This document shows, piece after piece, positions 1-9,458 of a stretch of DNA of 64,000 nt. Every line of letters begins with the position of its first letter. Positions within the stretch are counted from its first letter, which is position 1. The position numbers and the translations under genes were made by a program. The notes beneath the pieces were generated by a model that was given only the letters and a program-made list of their open reading frames with translations, was not told the DNA's origin and did no database searches. This stretch comes from Escherichia phage vB_EcoM_JE01, in sequence record PQ471460.1. One strand, written 5' to 3'.

Positions 1-372
1 TTCTATAAATGGGCTGAAGCACAAAAAGATATTCATTGCGTATTTGTAGATGAAGCTCAGTTTTTAAAAACTGAACAGGTGCATCAATTAAGCCGAATTG
101 TAGATACATACAATGTTCCTGTTATGGCTTATGGTCTAAGGACTGATTTCGCTGGAAAATTATTTGAAGGTTCTAAAGAACTTTTGGCGATTGCAGATAA
201 ACTTATTGAACTAAAAGCAGTTTGTCATTGTGGTAAAAAAGCTATTATGACAGCTCGATTAATGGAAGATGGAACACCAGTTAAAGAAGGTGATCAAATC
301 TGTATTGGTGATGAAATTTATGTTTCTTTGTGTAGAAAACATTGGAATGAATTAACTAAAAAGCTTGGTTAG
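1..372 (+). CDS. tk: thymidine kinase, C-terminal part (5' end lies outside window)
   Basis: Frame is open from base 1; translation ...[35 protein letters not shown]...CHCGKKA... matches recalled T4 Tk C-terminus. Confidence 0.9.
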
Positions 373-381
373 TGCAAAAGT

Positions 382-389
382 TATAAATA
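382..389 (+). promoter_or_regulatory. candidate T4-type late promoter (TATAAATA) upstream of rI.1/rI
   Basis: Exact TATAAATA about 25 nt upstream of the ATG at 415. Confidence 0.45.
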
Positions 390-414
390 GGTTTATCTAA
401 CTAAAGGGGTATAT

Positions 415-627
415 ATGCTACAATTAACTGAAAAGCAACTTCGCAATCTTACTGTTCTTCAATTAGATGAAATTCGTAGGGAAGTTGGAAATATCATTTC
501 AGCTTTGCGTCGAGAAGTATCACTCAACCAATCTCCGGCAGACTATACTAGATTGCGAAATTTTGAAAAATACCTTGATAAAGTTAAGGCCGTGCATCGG
601 CATAAAGTAAATACAGGACAAAAATGA
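415..627 (+). CDS. hypothetical protein (rI.1 position)
   Basis: 70-aa ORF with SD-like AAAGGGG upstream; synteny tk-rI.1-rI. Confidence 0.6.
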
Positions 628-639
628 TAGGAGGCCTTT

Positions 640-933
640 ATGGCCTTAAAAGCAACGGCACTATTTGCCATGCTAGGATTAGCGTTTGCTTTATCTCCAC
701 CGATTGAAGCGAATGTCGATCCTCATTTTGATAAATTTATGGAATCTGGTATTAGACATGTTTATATGCTTTTTGAAAATAAAAGCGTAGAATCATCTGA
801 ACAGTTCTATAGTTTTATGCGAACGACCTATAAAAATGACCCGTGCTCTTCCGATTTTGAATGTATAGAACGAGGCGCGGAGATGGCACAATCATACGCT
901 AGAATTATGAACATTAAATTGGAGACTGAATGA
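640..933 (+). CDS. rI: lysis inhibition regulator RI (signal-anchored periplasmic protein)
   Basis: 97 aa; MALKATALFAMLGLAFALSPPIEANVDPHFDKFMESG... matches recalled T4 RI; SD AGGAGG upstream. Confidence 0.9.
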   Translation: MALKATALFAMLGLAFALSPPIEANVDPHFDKFMESGIRHVYMLFENKSVESSEQFYSFMRTTYKNDPCSSDFECIERGAEMAQSYARIMNIKLETE

Positions 934-1316
934 AATTCAGCGACTTTTCACAAAGTGGAAAACCTTCAAAGGCAGATGAATACTTAGGTTTATTAATGGC
1001 TGCGCAAGCTTATTTTCATTCTGCGCATTTTGAAACTAAAAGTTATGCTAGACACAAAGCATACGATTTTATTTTCTCTGAGTTGCCAGATTTGATTGAC
1101 AAATTTGGTGAGCAGTATTTGGGGTATTCTGGTAGAAAATACACGCCGGCAATTCCGGATGCCAGTAAACTTCCTACTGATACAGTTAAAATGATTGATC
1201 GCATACTAGACCAATCTAACAGCATTTATAAAGAAATGCCTCCAGCCATTCAAAGCACGATAGATGATATTACTGGAATGTTTTACCAGAGTAAGTATCT
1301 TCTTTCCCTCGAATAA
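930..1316 (+). CDS. hypothetical protein (rI.-1 position)
   Basis: 128-aa ORF overlapping rI stop (ATGA). Confidence 0.6.
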
Positions 1317-1320
1317 CATT

Positions 1321-1343
1321 AGTCTCCTTCGGGAGACTTTTTT
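1321..1343 (+). terminator. rho-independent terminator (UUCG hairpin + T-run)
   Basis: agtctcc-ttcg-ggagact followed by TTTTTT. Confidence 0.7.
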
Positions 1344-1353
1344 CATTTTACCG

Positions 1354-1383
1354 GTTTACTTTCCATTTGAGCTGTGATACTAT
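1354..1383 (+). promoter_or_regulatory. T4-type early promoter (GTTTAC -35, 18-nt spacer, TACTAT -10)
   Basis: ccGGTTTACtttcc...gtgaTACTATacaa; same module recurs at 43509. Confidence 0.6.
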
Positions 1384-1411
1384 ACAACCATCGGATAAAG
1401 AGGAGAACATC

Positions 1412-1600
1412 ATGAAAATTGAAGCACTTAATCAAGAAGGAAATATCTACGTCATCATTAATGGTGATTTTTTCGTCGACATGGATGAAGTTACTAGTGA
1501 AGAACTTGTAGAACTTCTTAAGAAACGTTATGATATGTGTGATGAAGCTGCAACTCATATGGCGTGTGCAATATTCTCTCTTTCATATGTGGTGGAATAA
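1412..1600 (+). CDS. hypothetical small protein
   Basis: 62-aa ORF; SD AAGAGGAG before ATG; lies downstream of the early promoter. Confidence 0.45.
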
Positions 1601-1782
1601 TGATTAGTATCGAACAAGCAGATAAAATTAAAGAATTGGTAGCTTTAATTCGCAAAGCAGATGAGGAACGCATTAACTTTGCCTTATCAGGTATTGAAGA
1701 ATTTGAAGCTAAAGTTGATAATGCTTTAGAAGCTTTAGATATGTTTCTTGATGAAATTATCGATCACAATACGAGAGTTTAG
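1600..1782 (+). CDS. hypothetical small protein
   Basis: 60-aa ORF, ATGA overlap with upstream ORF. Confidence 0.45.
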   Translation: MISIEQADKIKELVALIRKADEERINFALSGIEEFEAKVDNALEALDMFLDEIIDHNTRV

Positions 1783-1783
1783 T

Positions 1784-1978
1784 ATGCTAACACGTGAACA
1801 GTTTGAAAAAATCATTAAATTAGCACGTGATATTGAAATAGATTCATATCAATTGGCAGTTGAGCACTGTGAAGGATATTCATACGACGGTATAGAAGCA
1901 GCTAAAAAGGATTTGGATAAATCCAAAGCTAAGTTAGTTCAATATCTTGAAATGATTAGGTGGAATAATGAAAACTGA
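1784..1978 (+). CDS. hypothetical small protein
   Basis: 64-aa ORF in tandem small-gene run. Confidence 0.45.
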   Translation: MLTREQFEKIIKLARDIEIDSYQLAVEHCEGYSYDGIEAAKKDLDKSKAKLVQYLEMIRWNNEN

Positions 1979-2099
1979 AAAGCAGATGTTTTTAATGAAG
2001 CTAATTGAAGAATATGCTAATGCAGTTTCTGACTATGAGTATTCTGCTCGGGAAAGAGGTACAGCTTTCGCAAAGGAAGAAATGAAAAATTATGGTTGA
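1968..2099 (+). CDS. hypothetical small protein (43 aa)
   Basis: Short ORF overlapping upstream stop; below ORF-track cutoff. Confidence 0.3.
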   Translation: MKTEKQMFLMKLIEEYANAVSDYEYSARERGTAFAKEEMKNYG

Positions 2100-2144
2100 T
2101 GCTCACACAAAACTCCAGAATTTTATTGAAACCGTCATTTAATG

Positions 2145-2174
2145 GTTTACAAGTTGGCAAGGTTATGATATAGT
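2145..2174 (+). promoter_or_regulatory. T4-type early promoter with stem-loop
   Basis: GTTTAC ... TATAGT at 18-nt spacing; imperfect inverted repeat agttggcaag/cttgtcaact around the -10. Confidence 0.5.
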
Positions 2175-2309
2175 AATCTTGTCAACTGTCAAGGAGAAGA
2201 GAATGAAAGTTTTGTTTGTTGTGTATGTGATGATTCAATATAATTACCCAATGTTTACTTATAATCTAGTGAACAACATTATTGATATTATTCAAAGGAG
2301 TATGTAATT

Positions 2310-2867
2310 GTGAGTGAGTCGAAGAGAATCAATATGAAACGATTAGTACTAGAAGTTAGTTCACTTTTTGGTGAATTGGCTATAGAAAAAGTAAATAATA
2401 TGTATCGTTTGACGCAAGAAGACGATATGCTATATTTTACGCCTAGCGAAATTATTCATTTAACCCAAATTGAAAAACCTTACACTGATAAAATTGTAAG
2501 CATCAATGATGAGCATAAAATTCATTTTTATTCTTTATGCCCAGGATTTAACATTGAAAGCGAGTCAATATGCTTATCAATTAATAATTGGGATAATTTT
2601 ATAACTAAAATTAAATATTTTTATTATTCTAATGAAAGAAAACATAGTTTAAAATGGCTTAAAAATTGCAATGCTATTATTACTAACGCTTGTGATCGGA
2701 ATGATGAAACTGTTTTAAATGTATCAAAATGTTATGAAGAGGGAGATGTCTTAACTATTCGTCAAATTGATGATTTTCGATCACATATTGTCACATTTAC
2801 CAAAGACGAAGCTATTGCGCTAAAGACTTATCTTGATTCTGTCATTCCAACTATGATTTCAAAGTGA
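2310..2867 (+). CDS. hypothetical protein, paralog of the next ORF
   Basis: 185-aa ORF (GTG start after AAGGAG); shares GFNIE-E motif and C-terminal ...AIALKTYLDSVIPTMISK with the next ORF (...AEAMIKYLTTVTPSMKG). Confidence 0.6.
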   Translation: MSESKRINMKRLVLEVSSLFGELAIEKVNNMYRLTQEDDMLYFTPSEIIHLTQIEKPYTDKIVSINDEHKIHFYSLCPGFNIESESICLSINNWDNFITKIKYFYYSNERKHSLKWLKNCNAIITNACDRNDETVLNVSKCYEEGDVLTIRQIDDFRSHIVTFTKDEAIALKTYLDSVIPTMISK

Positions 2868-2873
2868 GGAAAT

Positions 2874-3395
2874 ATGTTTATTTCAAGTGAAAGTGGTTTA
2901 ATTCGTGTTGAATTTAAAAATGACATCTTCCTTATTCAAGGAGATGATATTATTAAAATGAGTTATGATGAAATCAAGAAAATTTGTCATGCTCTTGAAA
3001 GTCATGGAAAGGAAAATGCTACTATTAATATAGGTGATTTATGGGTGACACTTTATGAAGTATCCGAAGGATTTAATATTGAAGATGAAAATAACATTTT
3101 AGCTATTGATAAAAGAAGTGATTTGTTTGATGTATTAAAAGTTTATGAACAATCAAACGGTGGAAGAAAAGCCGTATTGATTTATCAAAAACCGCATTCA
3201 TGTGGAACTGCTTCAATCATTTCAAATATTGAAGATGAAACTGATACCTATATGTGTGTTTTGAAAGCTGGTGGTGACCGTCATCCGGATTTTATTTCTA
3301 TTCGTCAAAACAATGGAGAAATTTCATTATCAAAATCAGAAGCTGAAGCTATGATTAAGTATTTAACAACTGTTACACCTTCAATGAAAGGATAA
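2874..3395 (+). CDS. hypothetical protein, paralog of the previous ORF
   Basis: 173-aa ORF; SD GAGGAAA; shared motifs with 2310-2867. Confidence 0.6.
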   Translation: MFISSESGLIRVEFKNDIFLIQGDDIIKMSYDEIKKICHALESHGKENATINIGDLWVTLYEVSEGFNIEDENNILAIDKRSDLFDVLKVYEQSNGGRKAVLIYQKPHSCGTASIISNIEDETDTYMCVLKAGGDRHPDFISIRQNNGEISLSKSEAEAMIKYLTTVTPSMKG

Positions 3396-3397
3396 TT

Positions 3398-3859
3398 ATG
3401 ATTATTAATGAAAACTCTTGGCATTATAAATTATTCAAAATGTTTAATGATGAATGGAAACGGCCTAAGACACTATGCGCGTATTTTTGGTCTATTGTTA
3501 TTCCTACATTTTTCGTTTCTTTTTTCGGATGTACTATACTCGCAGGTCTAACTATCATCTGTGCAGAAATCATACAGAAATGGCTTATTTTTGGTAGTTT
3601 ATGGACTCTTATTCCATCAGCATTTGTACTTGCCATTTTGCTTGTTTTACTTATTATTGGTTCATTTGTTATTCCTGCACAACTGCATGAAAAATATAAA
3701 GATTATAAATGGAAAAAGGATTATGCTTTACATGTAGAAAATATTGATAGGGCGTATAAAGGTTTACCTCCTATTCAACCCAAGAAGTCTATTATCGTCG
3801 AATTTTTAAAAGCTCGTAAAGCTAAAGTATGTCCTGTTATTGAATATAAGGCTGAATGA
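3398..3859 (+). CDS. predicted integral membrane protein
   Basis: 153 aa with at least three long hydrophobic segments. Confidence 0.6.
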   Translation: MIINENSWHYKLFKMFNDEWKRPKTLCAYFWSIVIPTFFVSFFGCTILAGLTIICAEIIQKWLIFGSLWTLIPSAFVLAILLVLLIIGSFVIPAQLHEKYKDYKWKKDYALHVENIDRAYKGLPPIQPKKSIIVEFLKARKAKVCPVIEYKAE

Positions 3860-4845
3860 TGAAAACAGTAATGAAAAGCTATTTTGGTAGTCATCTTTAT
3901 GGAACTTCTACTCCAGAATCTGATGTAGATTTTAAAGAAATCTTTGTTCCTCCTGCTCGCGATATTCTTATCGGAAATGTTAAAGAGCATATGAGTAAAA
4001 ACACTAAAGATGATATTGACCATGAACTATACAGTCTTAAGTATTTCTTTAAATTAGCAGCAGACGGTGAAACTGTAGCATTGGATATGCTTCACACTCC
4101 ACCTGAACTAGTAGTTAAATCTGATTTGCCTGATGTATGGAAGTTTATTCAAGACAATCGTTCACGGTTTTATACGACTAACATGAAATCCTATTTAGGA
4201 TATGTCCGCAAGCAAGCTTCTAAATATGGTGTTAAGGGTTCTCGTTTGGCCGCATTGCGTGATGTATTGAAAGTAGTTAATCAAATCCCCGATCAGTGGG
4301 TTGATTACCGAGAAGATGGAACACAAGGACAACGTCGTACTAAAATTGCAGATATTAAACACCGTCTTCCAGAGAACGAGTTCTGTGAATGGGTATTCCA
4401 TAACCACGAGAAAACAGGTCCTCAAACGTTCTATACTGTTCTTGGACGTAAGTACCAAACCACCTTGTCTTTAATCGAGCTCAAGCAATCTCTGAATAAG
4501 CTCGATGCGGAATATGGTGAACGTGCTCGTAAGGCTGAAGCTAATGAAGGTATTGACTGGAAAGCTCTGAGTCATGCTTATCGCGCAGGGTATCAATTGA
4601 TGGAAATCTACCAAACAGGTGATTTGGCGTTCCCATTGCGCGAAGCCTCTATCATTAAGCTGATTAAAGCCGGTGAATTACCATTTAAAGAAGTTCAAGA
4701 ACTTCTTGAAGATACTGTTGATTTGGTTGAAGTCCTAGCCATCCAGGCAGCTAAGAACGGTATGCCTGATAAGGTAGACATGAAGTTCTGGGACAAGTTC
4801 GTTGAAGAGGTATATCTTGAAAACCACCGAAGTTATTATAAATGA
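3856..4845 (+). CDS. predicted nucleotidyltransferase (Pol-beta superfamily fold)
   Basis: 329 aa; N-terminal GS-x10-DVD (YFGSHLYGTSTPESDVDFKEIF) typical of Pol-beta-type NTases, with a further acidic residue about 50 aa downstream (VALDMLH). Confidence 0.65.
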   Translation: MMKTVMKSYFGSHLYGTSTPESDVDFKEIFVPPARDILIGNVKEHMSKNTKDDIDHELYSLKYFFKLAADGETVALDMLHTPPELVVKSDLPDVWKFIQDNRSRFYTTNMKSYLGYVRKQASKYGVKGSRLAALRDVLKVVNQIPDQWVDYREDGTQGQRRTKIADIKHRLPENEFCEWVFHNHEKTGPQTFYTVLGRKYQTTLSLIELKQSLNKLDAEYGERARKAEANEGIDWKALSHAYRAGYQLMEIYQTGDLAFPLREASIIKLIKAGELPFKEVQELLEDTVDLVEVLAIQAAKNGMPDKVDMKFWDKFVEEVYLENHRSYYK

Positions 4846-4847
4846 TA

Positions 4848-4872
4848 GGGAGCCTTCGGGCTCCCTTTTTTG
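4848..4872 (+). terminator. rho-independent terminator (UUCG hairpin + T-run)
   Basis: gggagcc-ttcg-ggctccc TTTTTTG. Confidence 0.7.
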
Positions 4873-4894
4873 TTTAAAATGACGTCACAAAGTT

Positions 4895-4924
4895 GTTTAC
4901 AAGCATAAAGCTTTATGGTACTAT
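4895..4924 (+). promoter_or_regulatory. T4-type early promoter
   Basis: GTTTAC, 18 nt, TGGTACTAT; followed by conserved leader CAACTATCAACT. Confidence 0.6.
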
Positions 4925-4959
4925 ACAACTATCAACTGATGTGGATTTGGGGGAATAAA

Positions 4960-5109
4960 ATGAAAACTACGTTAATTGAAGTAAAAAAGTTGATTGACAC
5001 AGAAGAGATTTCAGCTTGTTTTGAAAATTTCTTAGAAGATGCAACTGAAGATAACGCAGTTTATCTCGCTCAGAAAATTATAGAAACATATTTGGAGCAG
5101 AATCAATGA
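4960..5109 (+). CDS. hypothetical small protein
   Basis: 49-aa ORF downstream of the promoter. Confidence 0.4.
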   Translation: MKTTLIEVKKLIDTEEISACFENFLEDATEDNAVYLAQKIIETYLEQNQ

Positions 5110-5369
5110 CAGTTTACGTAGATGTTTTAATGAATCATGGATGGAAACTTCGCGGTCATCCAACTAAAAATTGTCATATGTTCACTGATGGAGATATTGA
5201 AGAGCTTCATGAAATGGCAGAAGCAATAGGAATGAAACGCTCTTGGTTTCAAGATAAACGCATTAAACATTATGACTTACACGCGCGCCGCCGCCAAAAA
5301 GCCGTAGAACTTGGAGCTGTAGAAGTATCTCGTCGCGAAGCAGTAAAAATTTGGCGAACATTAAAATAA
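5106..5369 (+). CDS. hypothetical protein
   Basis: 87-aa basic ORF (ATGA overlap); no confident family assignment. Confidence 0.55.
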   Translation: MTVYVDVLMNHGWKLRGHPTKNCHMFTDGDIEELHEMAEAIGMKRSWFQDKRIKHYDLHARRRQKAVELGAVEVSRREAVKIWRTLK

Positions 5370-5372
5370 ATT

Positions 5373-5402
5373 GTTTACAGTAGGGTAGTAGTGTGATACT
5401 AT
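5373..5402 (+). promoter_or_regulatory. T4-type early promoter with stem-loop
   Basis: GTTTAC ... TGATACTAT; inverted repeat tagggta/taccct flanks the -10. Confidence 0.55.
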
Positions 5403-5438
5403 TACCCTATCAAAACAAATGTTAAATTGGAGAATAAA

Positions 5439-6407
5439 ATGAAAACTGTAACTATCAATAAGGGTATCTACTTCGGTAAAGAAATCTCTGGAACTTTTGA
5501 GCTCTTAGGCGAATGGTTCCCAGATAATGCTCCGGTAGATGCACAGGGAGATGGTAAAGTTTTTGTTGAAATTGACGGTAAACGTCGCGGTGTTTGGGTT
5601 TACAAATCAGATATTTCATATGATGGTGTAAAAGTTGAAGAAGTTAAAGAATCATATGAAGATATGAAAACCCGCATTAATAAAAGATTTAATGTTATGG
5701 GAATGATGACGAATGGTATTATTAATGGAAATATTCGTTCATTGATTATCTCTGGCGCAGCAGGTATTGGTAAAACGTATTCTTTAGATAAAGCTTTAAA
5801 TAAAGCAAATGATAATGGATACATTGAATATAAAAGCATTAACGGTAAAATCTCTGGTATTGGTCTTTATGAGCAGCTTTGGAATAATCGTGAAGAGAAT
5901 TCTGTCCTTTTGATTGATGATGTGGATGTTTTCTCTGATATGGACATTCTTAATCTTCTAAAAGCTGCTCTGGACACTGGAGAGACCCGTAAAGTCTGCT
6001 GGAGTACTGCGTCTTCTTACTTAGAAGAAAAAGGCATTGAGCGTGAGTTTGAATTTAAAGGAACGATTGTTTTTATCACAAACGTTGATATTGACCGCGA
6101 ATTAGACCGTGGTACTAAACTTGCTCCACACCTACAAGCATTAGTGTCCCGCTCAGTTTATTTAGATTTGGGTGTTCATACTAATGAAGAAATTATGGTC
6201 AGGGTTGAAGATGTTATTCTTTCAACTGACATGATGCAAAAGCGCGGTCTTTCTGATGAAGAAACTTATAAAGCATTATCATGGATGAAAGTTAATGTTA
6301 ATCGTTTACGCAATGTTTCACTGCGTACTGCTCTTTATCTTGCTGACTTTATTATGACCGACAAAAACGGTTGGGAAGAAATTGCTGAAACGGTATTATT
6401 AAAATGA
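5439..6407 (+). CDS. predicted P-loop NTPase (AAA-like ATPase)
   Basis: 322 aa; Walker A GAAGIGKT and Walker B LLIDDVD; SD GGAG before ATG. Confidence 0.65.
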   Translation: MKTVTINKGIYFGKEISGTFELLGEWFPDNAPVDAQGDGKVFVEIDGKRRGVWVYKSDISYDGVKVEEVKESYEDMKTRINKRFNVMGMMTNGIINGNIRSLIISGAAGIGKTYSLDKALNKANDNGYIEYKSINGKISGIGLYEQLWNNREENSVLLIDDVDVFSDMDILNLLKAALDTGETRKVCWSTASSYLEEKGIEREFEFKGTIVFITNVDIDRELDRGTKLAPHLQALVSRSVYLDLGVHTNEEIMVRVEDVILSTDMMQKRGLSDEETYKALSWMKVNVNRLRNVSLRTALYLADFIMTDKNGWEEIAETVLLK

Positions 6408-7123
6408 AAAAATATTTTACTATCTATAAAACTGAAATATTAAATTTAAAGACAGGTATTAAGAAATACTATTATGGTCGACATATAACTAATAACATCA
6501 ATGATTCGTATGTTGGTAGTGGAAATTATATAGAACGTGTAAAAGTGTCAAATGACCACATATTATCAAAAACGGTTTTAGAAGTTTTTGATAATTATGA
6601 TAAAATGGTACAAGCTGAAATATTATATATCATGGCAGGTAAATTGAAATATGGAAAAAACTGTGTTAACCTGTCATACGGGGGTGAAGGAGGAAAGGTT
6701 GCAGATGAAACTAGGATAAAATGCAAAAAGCATTCTATAAATTTATGGAAAAATCCTAATCATATACAGCATATGAAGAAAAAGATGAAAGAGGTTACAT
6801 CCACGCCGGAAGCTAAATTAAACACTTCAATAAAAACTTCGCAACGATATAAGGACCCAGTTTTTGTTAGAAAAGTTAGTAATATTATTAAAAAGAAACT
6901 AAGCAATCCTGCAGTAAAAGAAAAGCATATTAATGGAATTAAAGCTGCAAAGCGTTCTCATTTAACTATATGGCAGTATGAAGATGAATTATTCGAGCTT
7001 TGGAAAGAAACTAAATATGGATGGAGAAAATTTACAAAGGAAGCTATAAAACACGGATATCCAAATGAACCGTATCGTAGTATGGTATCAACTTTTCAGA
7101 AAAGACATTTAGAAGAATCCTAA
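6404..7123 (+). CDS. putative Seg-like (degenerate GIY-YIG) homing endonuclease
   Basis: 239 aa, lysine-rich and AT-rich; N-terminus FTIYKTEILNLKTGIKKYYYGRH resembles GIY-(10-11)-YIG; C-terminal basic repeats typical of DNA-binding modules. Confidence 0.5.
   Translation: MKKYFTIYKTEILNLKTGIKKYYYGRHITNNINDSYVGSGNYIERVKVSNDHILSKTVLEVFDNYDKMVQAEILYIMAGKLKYGKNCVNLSYGGEGGKVADETRIKCKKHSINLWKNPNHIQHMKKKMKEVTSTPEAKLNTSIKTSQRYKDPVFVRKVSNIIKKKLSNPAVKEKHINGIKAAKRSHLTIWQYEDELFELWKETKYGWRKFTKEAIKHGYPNEPYRSMVSTFQKRHLEES
6404..7123 (+). mobile_element. putative free-standing homing endonuclease gene
   Basis: Same ORF as above; compositionally distinct from neighbours. Confidence 0.4.
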
Positions 7124-7206
7124 GACAAAAAAGGCAGTTCAGAAATAGATTATATGGACTGCCATTAAAAAGATGACTAGAACTAAACTGGTGAATGGAG
7201 GTAGTG

Positions 7207-7509
7207 ATGTTATACTCAAAGGCTCGTGAAATTTACGAAACTAAAATTAAAGAAGCTGTATTTCAGTTCGCAACAACGATGCGATGGACAAATGATTGGG
7301 AGTATTCAAAAAATCATAAGAAGCCCCTGGTGACAAGAAAGGCTCATATGTTAGTGTTAATAGACCGTGAGCAGATTAAAGCCCGAGAAGCCCTCCAGAA
7401 TCATAAAAAGGCTGCCTTTGAATGGTTTATGGATAACACTGCTCCTGAGACTAAGAAAGTGGTAAGTGCTTGGTTCAGTGGAAAAAATTGTGAAAGAAGT
7501 TTCTTTTAG
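7207..7509 (+). CDS. hypothetical protein
   Basis: 100-aa ORF with SD GGAGG upstream. Confidence 0.5.
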   Translation: MLYSKAREIYETKIKEAVFQFATTMRWTNDWEYSKNHKKPLVTRKAHMLVLIDREQIKAREALQNHKKAAFEWFMDNTAPETKKVVSAWFSGKNCERSFF

Positions 7510-7511
7510 TG

Positions 7512-7564
7512 GTTTACAAGACTGTTCCTCTGTGGTACTATACAACTATCAACTACGGAGGAAC
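7512..7564 (+). promoter_or_regulatory. early promoter inside a stem-loop (PeSL-type cassette)
   Basis: GTTTAC, 18 nt, TGGTACTAT; stem gttcctctg/cggaggaac encloses the -10 and forms the SD; near-identical copy at 60741-60793. Confidence 0.6.
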
Positions 7565-7569
7565 AGAAA

Positions 7570-8097
7570 ATGAACGCTAAAGATATTTTCAACTTAGTAA
7601 ATTATAACGATGGTAAATTTAAATCTGAAGCACAAAGCAAGTTCTTTAACGACATCTCAATCGGAGGTGAAATCACTGTTGATGGAGGACAAATTTACAA
7701 ATCACGTTGGAATTGGATCGTTATTATTGATGAGATTGGTATTGTAGAAATTTACAAGAATACGAATAAAAATCGTACATTACACTGGTCTCGTGATACT
7801 AACGAACAGTACAAAAAGGATAAAGCATCTAAAATGTCTCGTGTAACTCAAGAAGATATTGAGTTCATCAAGAAAGATATTTTAATGTATGATAACTTAA
7901 TTGCTGAAGAGCAAGCTGTTATTGATAAATTTGACGAGATTAAAGCTTCTCGTGAAATTCCTGATTTTATGAAAGAATCAGTAAATGAACGATACTCTCT
8001 CATTTCAGAGCGTATTGAAACTTACAAAAAGCAAAGAGCTGAACGCCAAAATACTCTTCGGAAGTTTGAAGAACGGTTAAAGACGGTACTCGCATAA
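7570..8097 (+). CDS. hypothetical protein with coiled-coil C-terminus
   Basis: 175-aa ORF immediately after the cassette. Confidence 0.6.
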   Translation: MNAKDIFNLVNYNDGKFKSEAQSKFFNDISIGGEITVDGGQIYKSRWNWIVIIDEIGIVEIYKNTNKNRTLHWSRDTNEQYKKDKASKMSRVTQEDIEFIKKDILMYDNLIAEEQAVIDKFDEIKASREIPDFMKESVNERYSLISERIETYKKQRAERQNTLRKFEERLKTVLA

Positions 8098-8099
8098 CC

Positions 8100-8123
8100 G
8101 CTTTATACCAAGGATGGTATAAT
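8100..8123 (+). promoter_or_regulatory. candidate middle-type promoter (weak MotA box + TATAAT)
   Basis: GCTTTA, 12 nt, TGGTATAAT. Confidence 0.4.
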
Positions 8124-8152
8124 GGTTCTAAGCCCTTTTAATTGAGATTATT

Positions 8153-8560
8153 ATGAAACGGTTGATAATTAAAAGATTGAATTTATTGATATGTTGTTTA
8201 TGTATAGTAGTTGCATATGGTTATTACGCAATTAATGATTATATGCACTATAAAGATTATGATGTTACTGTAGTTAATACTATTACAGGAACTCAAGGAA
8301 AGGGGTCTAGTTTATCGTTTATTGCCGTATATGAACTCAAAGACGGTTATAGATTTAGTGAATATATTTCCCCAGAGATGTATTCTTCAATAGAAAAAGG
8401 TGATAATATTACTGTAAGTTTACGTCCTTTCGACGTAAAACAGACACTGTTTGATAATATTGTTTGGTTCTTTGGGATGGTATTAGTTCAATCCGTGTGT
8501 GGCGCTTATGTAGTTTGTTCAATCATATTCTGTGTATTTAGTAAAATTGAAATTGAGTGA
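8153..8560 (+). CDS. predicted membrane protein
   Basis: 135 aa with N- and C-terminal hydrophobic helices. Confidence 0.55.
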   Translation: MKRLIIKRLNLLICCLCIVVAYGYYAINDYMHYKDYDVTVVNTITGTQGKGSSLSFIAVYELKDGYRFSEYISPEMYSSIEKGDNITVSLRPFDVKQTLFDNIVWFFGMVLVQSVCGAYVVCSIIFCVFSKIEIE

Positions 8561-8567
8561 GGAAAAT

Positions 8568-9458
8568 ATGTCAGTAGTAATTAATAATGTCAATGCAGTA
8601 ATTAAATCTTTAGTTAATAAAAAAATGATGAATGAATGGACTGTACTTCGTCGTGGAGAGCCAGATAAATTTTTTCATAGATTTAACCCAACTTTGGATT
8701 TGAATGTTATTGATAAAGATGTTCATGCCGAAATTTTAGATAAGTTTAAAGTTGATATTGGATTTGGATTAGAAAAACATTTACAGCGAACAAATGGATC
8801 TGGAATGAGTTTATCTAATCGCATTATGAAAGCCCTTAATAAAATTGGAGCATTGTCTCGTATTAACGCGAGTGAAATCCTTCGTAATTATAATAAAGGA
8901 TATGACCTTTATGGTCGACTAATGCCGAAGTTATCATTTGACCAAATGATAGCAGATTTGTGGGAAAATCAACGACGATTATTAGCATTAGGCGCTCGAT
9001 TAGCTAAAGGTCTAGATAAACAAATGATTTTTAAGACCAATAATACAGAAGACCTTAAATGCTTTAAATTTAGTATTCGCGGAGATGATTATTATATCAG
9101 AGCTCGCTCTACAGATTATGTTAATATGGGGCATCATCTCTGTTTAGCTTTTGAAGTTTTAAAAGAAGCTGGAACATTAGAATATTCATCTGGTGCAAAA
9201 TGCCCTATCGGTTCAAGTTGTATTTTAATTTATCGCCCGAATGAATCCAGTTCAACTACATTGCCTATGAAACCTGCGCCAGTTCGTAGTAACGAAAAAC
9301 ATTCTGAACAAATTGATTATTTTAATAAACAGATTGAAGAGCTGAATATTTCTATTCAACAATATGACGATGAAATTTTCAGACTATCTGGATTGAGTAG
9401 TAAAGCTAAATCTGAGCGTGAAAAGTTAATTAAAATCGTTGATTTACTTAAATCTTAA
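8568..9458 (+). CDS. hypothetical protein, member 1 of a four-gene tandem array
   Basis: 296 aa; SD GAGGAAA; C-terminal K/E-rich heptad-like helix. Confidence 0.6.
   Translation: MSVVINNVNAVIKSLVNKKMMNEWTVLRRGEPDKFFHRFNPTLDLNVIDKDVHAEILDKFKVDIGFGLEKHLQRTNGSGMSLSNRIMKALNKIGALSRINASEILRNYNKGYDLYGRLMPKLSFDQMIADLWENQRRLLALGARLAKGLDKQMIFKTNNTEDLKCFKFSIRGDDYYIRARSTDYVNMGHHLCLAFEVLKEAGTLEYSSGAKCPIGSSCILIYRPNESSSTTLPMKPAPVRSNEKHSEQIDYFNKQIEELNISIQQYDDEIFRLSGLSSKAKSEREKLIKIVDLLKS

Follow-up and report, generated by a model that had tools for sequence, protein, structure and literature searches.

Exchangeable gene cassettes in the probable mobD.2-nrdC.10 early region of Escherichia phage vB_EcoM_JE01

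Introduction

The locus considered here, positions 2145-7123 of a 64,000-nucleotide stretch (the window) of Escherichia phage vB_EcoM_JE01 (PQ471460.1), contains a two-gene cassette for a 49-residue acidic protein and a DUF4031 protein, flanked by early promoter/stem-loop elements (PeSLs), and a seg-like homing endonuclease gene. Arbiol et al. (2010; PMC2839356) describe, for RB49 and phi1, a relation between a site with two PeSLs and a site with one, and Comeau et al. (2014; PMC4122927) extend the PeSL model to a T-even (PST) pair. For one of the genes next to the cassette, nrdC.11, biochemistry is available from relatives: two Pseudomonas enzymes of the RlaP family add one or two nucleoside monophosphates (NMP) to RNA 3'-OH ends, prefer damaged RNA and have been proposed to repair tRNAs trimmed by nucleases such as RloC, and T4 NrdC.11 has been placed in the same family, in cluster 5 and not 1a, with its function given as unknown (bioRxiv 10.64898/2025.12.29.696909). 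Furthermore, the T4 segment from nrdC.11 to mobD.3 is one of the large fragments missing from viable genome-reduced mutants (PMC9825161).

An original prediction, made from the letters of the DNA, had taken this interval for a hyperplastic accessory island between rI.-1 and the nrdC block, with strain-specific cargo and the most likely place in the window for an undescribed system. Comparison of sequences leads us to a different view, held with good confidence: the interval is most probably the mobD.2-mobD.1-nrdC.11-nrdC.10 stretch of Tequatrovirus, in the non-essential early region between tk/rI and nrdC. It is a known region, built of known gene families by known mechanisms, and its exact mosaic is new. 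What had been a vague 5-kb 'island' can now be mapped precisely, as a set of backbone genes with three exchangeable cassettes.

Results

The first 10 kb of the window carry, all on the + strand (the direction of early transcription in T4), tk, rI.1, rI, rI.-1, mobD.5, mobD.4, mobD.3, mobD.2a, mobD.2, mobD.1 and then the series from nrdC.11 to nrdC.5, the names being taken from the annotated AR1 and T4 records. The interval was matched gene for gene with the annotated loci of T4, AR1, ZN18, IME537, Killian, SYGD1 and T6. Yersinia phage ZN18 has all the interval genes in identical order, and in NIC06P2 the full gene order recurs, mobD.1 being preceded by some 460 additional bases. When the 4979-nt interval was used as a megablast query, 758 phage records were matched, nearly all from T4-like phages of Escherichia, Shigella and Yersinia; 142 of the 758 covered at least 80% of it, with a top identity of about 93.5%. 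In no database record did the window's nrdC.11 3' allele, the cassette with its full PeSLs and the seg-like gene occur together. The predicted boundaries did not hold: rI.-1 (930-1316) is separated from position 2145 by mobD.5, mobD.4, mobD.3 and mobD.2a, and nrdC.11 and nrdC.10, the first genes of the nrdC block, lie within the interval. The predicted gene list had also overlooked mobD.2 (2203-2307) and the acidic 49-residue open reading frame (ORF; 4960-5109).

A protein-by-locus matrix of ZN18, IME537, Killian, SYGD1, T6, AR1 and T4, with NIC06P2 and Nami added, revealed four sites of insertion, deletion or replacement (A to D) among nine Tequatrovirus loci, between conserved flanks (mobD.2a 79-100% identical, nrdC.9 96-98%). 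The hyperplastic character of the region therefore survives in part, because gene content does differ at four sites among close relatives; the island does not, since about half of the interval is conserved backbone. Comparison with other T-even genomes showed that the interval is not collinear in all T4-like phages, and its functions are mostly unassigned. Nor is the interval made of non-conserved, strain-specific orphan reading frames: each of its eight proteins can be placed in a PHROG family that already exists, and of 50,697 phage records searched by tblastn, 1570 had NrdC.11, 1311 NrdC.10 and 931 the membrane protein.

At site C, which separates nrdC.11 from nrdC.10, nothing is inserted in T4, T6 and AR1, and the order after the nrdC.11 stop is a hairpin (AGGGAGCC-TTCG-GGCTCCCT with a T-run), a promoter (GTTTACAAGCATAAAGCTTTATGGTACTAT), a leader, GGAGAATAAAATGAAAACT and nrdC.10. 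The window and Killian share the hairpin, promoter and leader, and these are followed by GGGGGAATAAAATGAAAACT at the start of the 49-residue gene, then the DUF4031 gene, a second promoter (5373-5402) and GGAGAATAAAATGAAAACT at the start of nrdC.10. Promoter, leader, ribosome site and first codons are thus directly repeated on the two sides of the cassette. The left element consists of a hairpin at 4847-4866 (+ strand; found by scanning, fold -16.2 kcal/mol, z -4.0), which is kept in T4, T6 and AR1, and a predicted early promoter at 4895-4924 (+ strand; pattern search and alignment), which lies upstream of the inserted cassette here and would serve nrdC.10 in T4, T6 and AR1. The right element (5373-5410, + strand) is the second early promoter with a 14-bp stem-loop over its -10 box (pattern search; fold -17.8 kcal/mol, z -5.1). 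Two PeSLs surround the module in the window, Killian and SYGD1, against a single PeSL at the empty site of T4, T6 and AR1.

The first gene of the cassette (4960-5109, + strand; PHROG 6888) encodes the acidic protein, with an isoelectric point (pI) of 4.1, and has a GGGGGA Shine-Dalgarno sequence and an ATG. A 64-residue form of the ORF was rejected, as its start lies within the promoter -10 box; the ATG at 4960, after GGGGGA, is the credible start. The second gene (5106-5369, + strand), whose start is overlapped by the stop of the first, encodes the 87-residue basic protein of the original prediction (pI 9.66), a member of Pfam PF13223 (DUF4031; 77.7 bits against a cutoff of 25.6). The two are always found together in T4-like phages, and the pair occupies site C in 154 records with at least 80% query coverage. 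The site C genes of Mosigvirus JS09 and Acinetobacter phage Berthold were considered as DUF4031 candidates and rejected as unrelated small genes. SYGD1 has a further gene in site C with its own promoter and terminator; this 161-residue extra gene (5779-6264 of the SYGD1 locus) is labelled 'ADP-ribosylase', a label left unsupported by its lack of any Pfam hit. In ZN18 and IME537, 54 bp are deleted, so that the 5' arm of the hairpin runs directly into the promoter -10 region, and their DUF4031 cassette is presumably read through from nrdC.11; the annotations of both phages call a longer, 72-residue ORF just after nrdC.11.

The one unexpected result of the analysis was the transfer of this cassette. 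At three CC31-like loci (L044, L046 and L049) the pair again stands directly upstream of nrdC.10, with the 49-residue protein 92-94% and DUF4031 95% identical to those of the window, whereas NrdC.11 is 65-66% and NrdC.10 72-74% identical. The tract of high nucleotide identity runs from the ATG of the 49-residue gene to just past the -35 and -10 boxes of the downstream promoter, so that the right PeSL travels with the cassette into the CC31-like phages. From these limits, the transfer unit is therefore the 49-residue gene, the DUF4031 gene and the promoter. A third lineage has a diverged pair (41-56% and 77-79% identity) that lies 1.7-2 kb downstream of nrdC.10. On sequence comparison, these identities indicate that the cassette has recently crossed from genus to genus, entering the same slot.

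Site D, between nrdC.10 and nrdC.9, holds a free-standing Seg-like (GIY-YIG-type) homing endonuclease gene (6404-7123, + strand), much as had been predicted. The 239-residue protein belongs to PHROG 314 ('homing endonuclease') and is matched by the homing-endonuclease models of PADLOC, and its best match and closest paralog in T4 is SegB (tblastn, 27.5% over 166 residues, E 8e-6), which itself passes the Pfam GIY-YIG profile (28.3 bits against a cutoff of 22.6). Y23, G25, E72 and N89 are invariant against SegB, an Aeromonas phiAS4 endonuclease and I-TevI. At the sequence level, membership of the GIY-YIG Seg family is partly established. The gene is found in 66 records at 95% or more amino acid identity, among about 500 Tequatrovirus records, and the next-best match is at 46%; aligned junctions place its presence or absence at one exact site, with 99-100% nucleotide identity among carriers. 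In AR1, the gene labelled 'segE' (6805-7302 of that locus) has a truncated, 165-residue product although its DNA is 99% identical, and could be a pseudogene or a sequencing error.

The start of the seg-like gene overlaps the nrdC.10 stop (ATGA) and the gene lacks a promoter of its own, so it would be translationally coupled to nrdC.10. Carriers end nrdC.10 with GAA ACG GTA TTA TTA AAA TGA (ETVLLK), and the seg-less phage Killian ends it with GAG GTT ACT CTT CTG AAA TAA (EVTLLK); T4 is frameshifted there. About 30 nt of the spacer are replaced in carriers too. Such an arrangement is the usual signature of a free-standing homing endonuclease that abolishes its own target on inserting, from which we infer the target to be the nrdC.10 3' end of seg-less phages: the enzyme would cut this unmodified end, and the recoded last codons probably protect the carrier. 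A candidate cutting site is thereby suggested for an uncharacterised Seg-like endonuclease.

The genes on either side of site C behave differently from these cassettes. The predicted nucleotidyltransferase is nrdC.11 (3856-4845, + strand), a Pol-beta nucleotidyltransferase of the RlaP family (Pfam PF10127, 51.4 bits against a cutoff of 23) with the GS...DxD motif GSHLYGTSTPESDVD in its N-terminal part; the RNA-ligase neighbourhood from which the RlaP family takes its name has no counterpart among the genes of window 1-9000. As a matter of family membership, the RlaP link is the best functional lead in the interval. The predicted ATPase is nrdC.10 (5439-6407, + strand), which has Walker A and B motifs and the core-plus-lid fold of an AAA+ ATPase behind an N-terminal beta-rich domain. 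NrdC.10 is 99-100% identical across Tequatrovirus, against 85-97% for adjacent genes, and also occurs in jumbo phages, which suggests a strong constraint on the protein; T4 NrdC.10 has a different C-terminus arising from one extra base, which may be real or a sequencing error. Backbone proteins extend to T4-like phages of Klebsiella, Acinetobacter, Aeromonas and Vibrio and to some jumbo phages. We profile-scanned 63 IMG/VR loci with NrdC.11 relatives for a membrane gene up to 4 kb upstream and nrdC.10 up to 4 kb downstream. Where NrdC.11 was at least 60% identical (36 loci), these were present at 35 and 28 loci, respectively; at 45-60% (16 loci) each was present at 4, and below 45% (11 loci) neither was present. 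These three genes therefore make up a backbone that is inherited and syntenic in Tevenvirinae and some Acinetobacter phages, and are neither strain-specific cargo nor an obligate module. Together with mobD.1, they would have been inherited across Straboviridae.

The nrdC.11 allele of the window has features of its own. A 24-bp in-frame deletion at 3993-4000 (codons 47-48), between 12-nt direct repeats of TAAAAACACTAA, takes SKNTNNTS out of a loop; T4, ZN18 and Killian keep the longer form, and the deletion was found in none of the phages compared. The 3' third of the gene (4200-4850) has 66-79% nucleotide identity to the T4/T6/AR1/ZN18 type and 100% to Killian, and is a rare allele, with NrdC.11 at least 95% identical in only seven records. 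This divergent 3' allele is contiguous with the full-PeSL cassette, so that a single recombination tract may have brought in both. The guanine-plus-cytosine (GC) content of nrdC.11 is 40-46%, against about 30-33% in flanking genes; a recent import of the gene was rejected as the explanation, since T4 nrdC.11 has a matching profile, and the high GC is therefore an old feature of the gene.

A search of the whole window for the T4-type early promoter pattern GTTTAC-N15-TGNTANNNT gave 18 matches in 64 kb, every one of them on the + strand, where chance would give 0.10. Three predicted sites lie inside the interval (2145, 4895 and 5373) and two flank it (1354 and 7512), in agreement with the early promoters that had been proposed. 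The first (2145-2174, + strand; GTTTACA-N14-TGA-TATAGT; pattern search and consensus scan) heads a predicted mobD.2-nrdC.11 unit, which would end at the hairpin of the left PeSL acting with its T-run as a terminator, and the third heads nrdC.10 and the seg-like gene. Judged by these elements, the region is early-transcribed and rich in promoter/stem-loop structures, and host RNA polymerase would transcribe the whole of it early from three sigma-70-like promoters. A further hairpin with a 9-bp stem and no T-run, in the spacer before nrdC.9 (7133-7163, + strand; fold -13.9 kcal/mol, z -4.9; alignment), is conserved in seg-carrying and seg-less phages alike, and another strong hairpin, a putative terminator, stands at 1321-1338. 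A 47-nt promoter/leader repeat (4891-4937 and 7508-7554) is 81% identical, and repeats of this kind are potential recombination substrates elsewhere in the window.

Upstream of nrdC.11, the interval begins with a mobD.2 homolog of 34 residues (2203-2307, + strand; ATG at 2203), assigned from its sequence and the T4 annotation and 90-98% identical at the amino acid level in seven relatives. It is followed by mobD.1 (2310-2867, + strand; PHROG 1502), which is 86-96% identical across relatives and has both Pfam y05I domains (T4_y05I_N, 8e-41; T4_y05I_C, 5e-21), and by a second y05I-family gene (2874-3395, + strand) that has the same two domains and is absent in T4. These form the tandem paralog pair that had been noticed; their identity is only 29% (over 175 residues, E 8e-12), and the duplication is therefore old. 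The next gene (3398-3859, + strand; PHROG 944, 'membrane protein') encodes a small basic membrane protein of 153 residues, and its stop overlaps the nrdC.11 start. It had been described as polytopic, and hydropathy gives two hydrophobic stretches of about 34 residues each (26-59 and 62-95), consistent with at least two transmembrane segments but not fixing their exact number. Site A, upstream of mobD.1, has additional DNA in T6, SYGD1 and NIC06P2; in T6 and SYGD1 this amounts to two additional small genes, the T6 pair being DUF7438 and a phage Tudor domain. In IME537 the 5' part of mobD.1 is replaced. Site B, between mobD.1 and nrdC.11, has the y05I paralog and the membrane gene as its majority state (422 records with at least 80% query coverage), and in T4 has the free-standing HNH gene mobD instead. 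The match to the membrane gene in T2 is split in two pieces, which could reflect a pseudogene or a sequencing error.

Searches for function added little. No Rfam RNA family was found in window 1-9000, the NCBIfam search of the interval proteins gave no useful match, and the PADLOC defence-system models matched none of these proteins except the seg-like one, through generic homing-endonuclease models. PDB sequence searches with the seg-like protein, NrdC.10, DUF4031 and NrdC.11 returned nothing meaningful. The literature yielded nothing functional on mobD.1/y05I, nrdC.10 or DUF4031, and the locus goes unmentioned in the phage accessory-gene screen of Silas et al. GenBank records of relatives give nrdC.x genes the name 'thioredoxin' and mobD.x genes the name 'molybdopterin-guanine dinucleotide biosynthesis protein MobD', and call the seg-like gene 'segE'. 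These systematic mislabels appear to have been copied from gene names and not from homology, and they propagate in GenBank.

Discussion

The 49-residue/DUF4031 cassette has promoter, leader and ribosome-site sequences on either side of it that are near-identical. Recombination between them, a modular shuffling of the PeSL type, is the most likely explanation of its gain and loss. Several observations weigh against this picture of a known region with PeSL-bounded and homing cassettes. The upstream promoter is missing from the ZN18/IME537 cassette, so the PeSL flanks are not needed to keep it; the left junction in the CC31-like phages is a gene and not a PeSL; and presence or absence cannot give the direction, gain or loss, of each event. 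The promoters and terminators are themselves consensus and fold predictions. At site D, the Seg-like protein gave no match to PF01541 or PF19835 even at E of 10 or less, and its proposed target is drawn by analogy with SegF, SegG and MobE.

What the cassette might do is a separate question. One proposal takes the 49-residue acidic protein and DUF4031 for the two components of a mobile effector, in which a small enzyme would be paired with a partner or regulator; a selective advantage conferred by it (counter-defence, for example) would explain the recent spread between genera. We regard this as unlikely, although several features are in keeping with it. In three T4-like lineages the two genes are never apart, the stop of one overlapping the start of the other, and the pair is 92-95% identical across genera in which the flanking genes are 65-74% identical. 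In an alignment of 45 diverse homologs, D6, H24, L34, A38, Q49, H55, Y56, D57 and G70 are invariant, and the conserved polar positions among them (D6, H24, Q49, H55, Y56 and D57) suggest a catalytic or ligand-binding site. The structure model is confident, with a predicted local distance difference test (pLDDT) score of 93, and gave no informative fold match and no close solved relative. Against the proposal, the evidence comes from sequence and a model; no PADLOC or PDB sequence match was found, and the spread of the pair could be hitch-hiking on the promoter cassette. Outside T4-like phages, moreover, DUF4031 lacks the acidic partner. All 92 of its homologs stand alone, at roughly 50-130 residues each. 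Three distant neighbourhoods were inspected, on a metagenome contig of 198 kb, on a phage-like contig of 15 kb (the protein of which recurs on a contig of 98 kb) and in a genome assembly from NCBI; the neighbours were unrelated small phage genes, with no RlaP, AAA+ or acidic partner among them. A fuller version would have DUF4031 act as a tiny enzyme or ligand-binder through its Asp/His/His-Tyr-Asp cluster, the pair having passed recently between T4-like genera to counter host defence or take over a host function and repeatedly landing just upstream of nrdC.10; this must be considered something of a long shot.

A second proposal concerns the backbone and not the cassette. The membrane protein, NrdC.11 and NrdC.10 could be a conserved module for RNA 3'-end repair that complements T4 Pnk/Rnl, with RlaP restoring the nucleotides removed by 'smart' anticodon nucleases such as RloC. 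In favour of this, the bacterial enzymes add 1-2 NMP to RNA 3' ends and T4 NrdC.11 is in their family (bioRxiv 10.64898/2025.12.29.696909). Furthermore, the membrane gene overlaps the nrdC.11 start, and the order of membrane gene, nrdC.11, variable slot and nrdC.10 is found in Tequatrovirus, Mosigvirus and Acinetobacter phages. However, this synteny is lineage-limited (4 of 16 loci at 45-60% NrdC.11 identity, 0 of 11 below 45%), T4 does without the membrane gene, no RNA ligase adjoins these genes here, NrdC.11 falls in another sequence cluster than the assayed enzymes, and arbitrary cargo, as well as a terminator, is tolerated between nrdC.11 and nrdC.10. A dedicated repair module is, in our judgement, improbable.

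Pairs of a nucleotidyltransferase and an ATPase are common in conflict systems, and it was on this ground, with the adjacency, shared strand and predicted early promoters of the nucleotidyltransferase, DUF4031 and ATPase genes and the position of DUF4031 directly upstream of nrdC.10 in two genera, that the interval might be read as one coherent, undescribed host-takeover or anti-defence system; this is very hard to credit, as a terminator and two promoters divide the three genes among three transcription units, the DUF4031 cassette is in 154 records against about 500 Tequatrovirus records with nrdC.10 at 95% or more, DUF4031 homologs elsewhere have no RlaP or AAA+ neighbour, Aeromonas and Vibrio phages carry nrdC.10 away from nrdC.11, no NrdC.11 relative below 45% identity has nrdC.10 in its vicinity, and PADLOC matches were limited to homing-endonuclease models. 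With no obligate co-occurrence of these genes, and with each variable cassette known from dozens to hundreds of sequenced phages, the expectation of an undescribed system was not borne out. Instead, the search for counter-defence functions is narrowed to two small targets, the 49-residue/DUF4031 pair and NrdC.11 with its neighbours.

Returning to the known systems, the closest counterpart of the whole interval is the T4 mobD.2-nrdC.9 segment (NC_000866, about 54.2-58.0 kb), which has mobD.2, mobD.1, nrdC.11, nrdC.10 and nrdC.9 in the order and orientation of the window and a matching terminator and promoter behind nrdC.11, with counterparts in AR1, RB32, T6 and ZN18 as well. T4 differs in that the HNH gene mobD takes the place of the window's y05I paralog and membrane gene, and in lacking both the DUF4031 cassette and the seg-like gene. 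NrdC.11 shares Pfam PF10127 and the GS...DxD motif with PfRlaP and PaRlaP, but belongs to sequence cluster 5 and not 1a and does not adjoin an RNA ligase, and the activity is known from the Pseudomonas enzymes alone. NrdC.10 has the core and lid fold and the Walker A and B motifs of the MoxR (NorQ/CbbQ), NtrC and initiator (DnaA/ORC/MCM) groups of AAA+ proteins; its N-terminal beta-rich domain is unique, and Pfam AAA models score it below threshold. The seg-like gene resembles T4 SegA-G (Edgell et al., 2010; PMC2988022) as an intergenic, promoter-less gene that is co-oriented with its neighbours and present or absent among relatives, and its product shows SegB homology and the Y...YxG...E...N positions. 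In contrast, it is distinct from all seven seg genes of T4, the nrdC.10/nrdC.9 site is empty in T4, the protein has no direct Pfam GIY-YIG score and the 'segE' label of some records is a misnomer.

For site C, the likeness to PeSLs lies in sigma-70-like early promoters with stem-loops that flank a variable ORFan cassette, and in the single PeSL of the empty site. In the left element the stem-loop is upstream of the -35 box and in the right element it covers the -10 box, so that both subclasses already described are represented. The differences are that PeSLs were described in RB49/phi1 and the PST pair, the searched portions of those texts not naming the nrdC.11/nrdC.10 slot, that the ZN18/IME537 variant is without half of the left element, and that the elements discussed here are known from their sequence. 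In summary, the 49-residue/DUF4031 cassette offers a clean Tequatrovirus example for the PeSL model, including a probable transfer between genera to the same slot.

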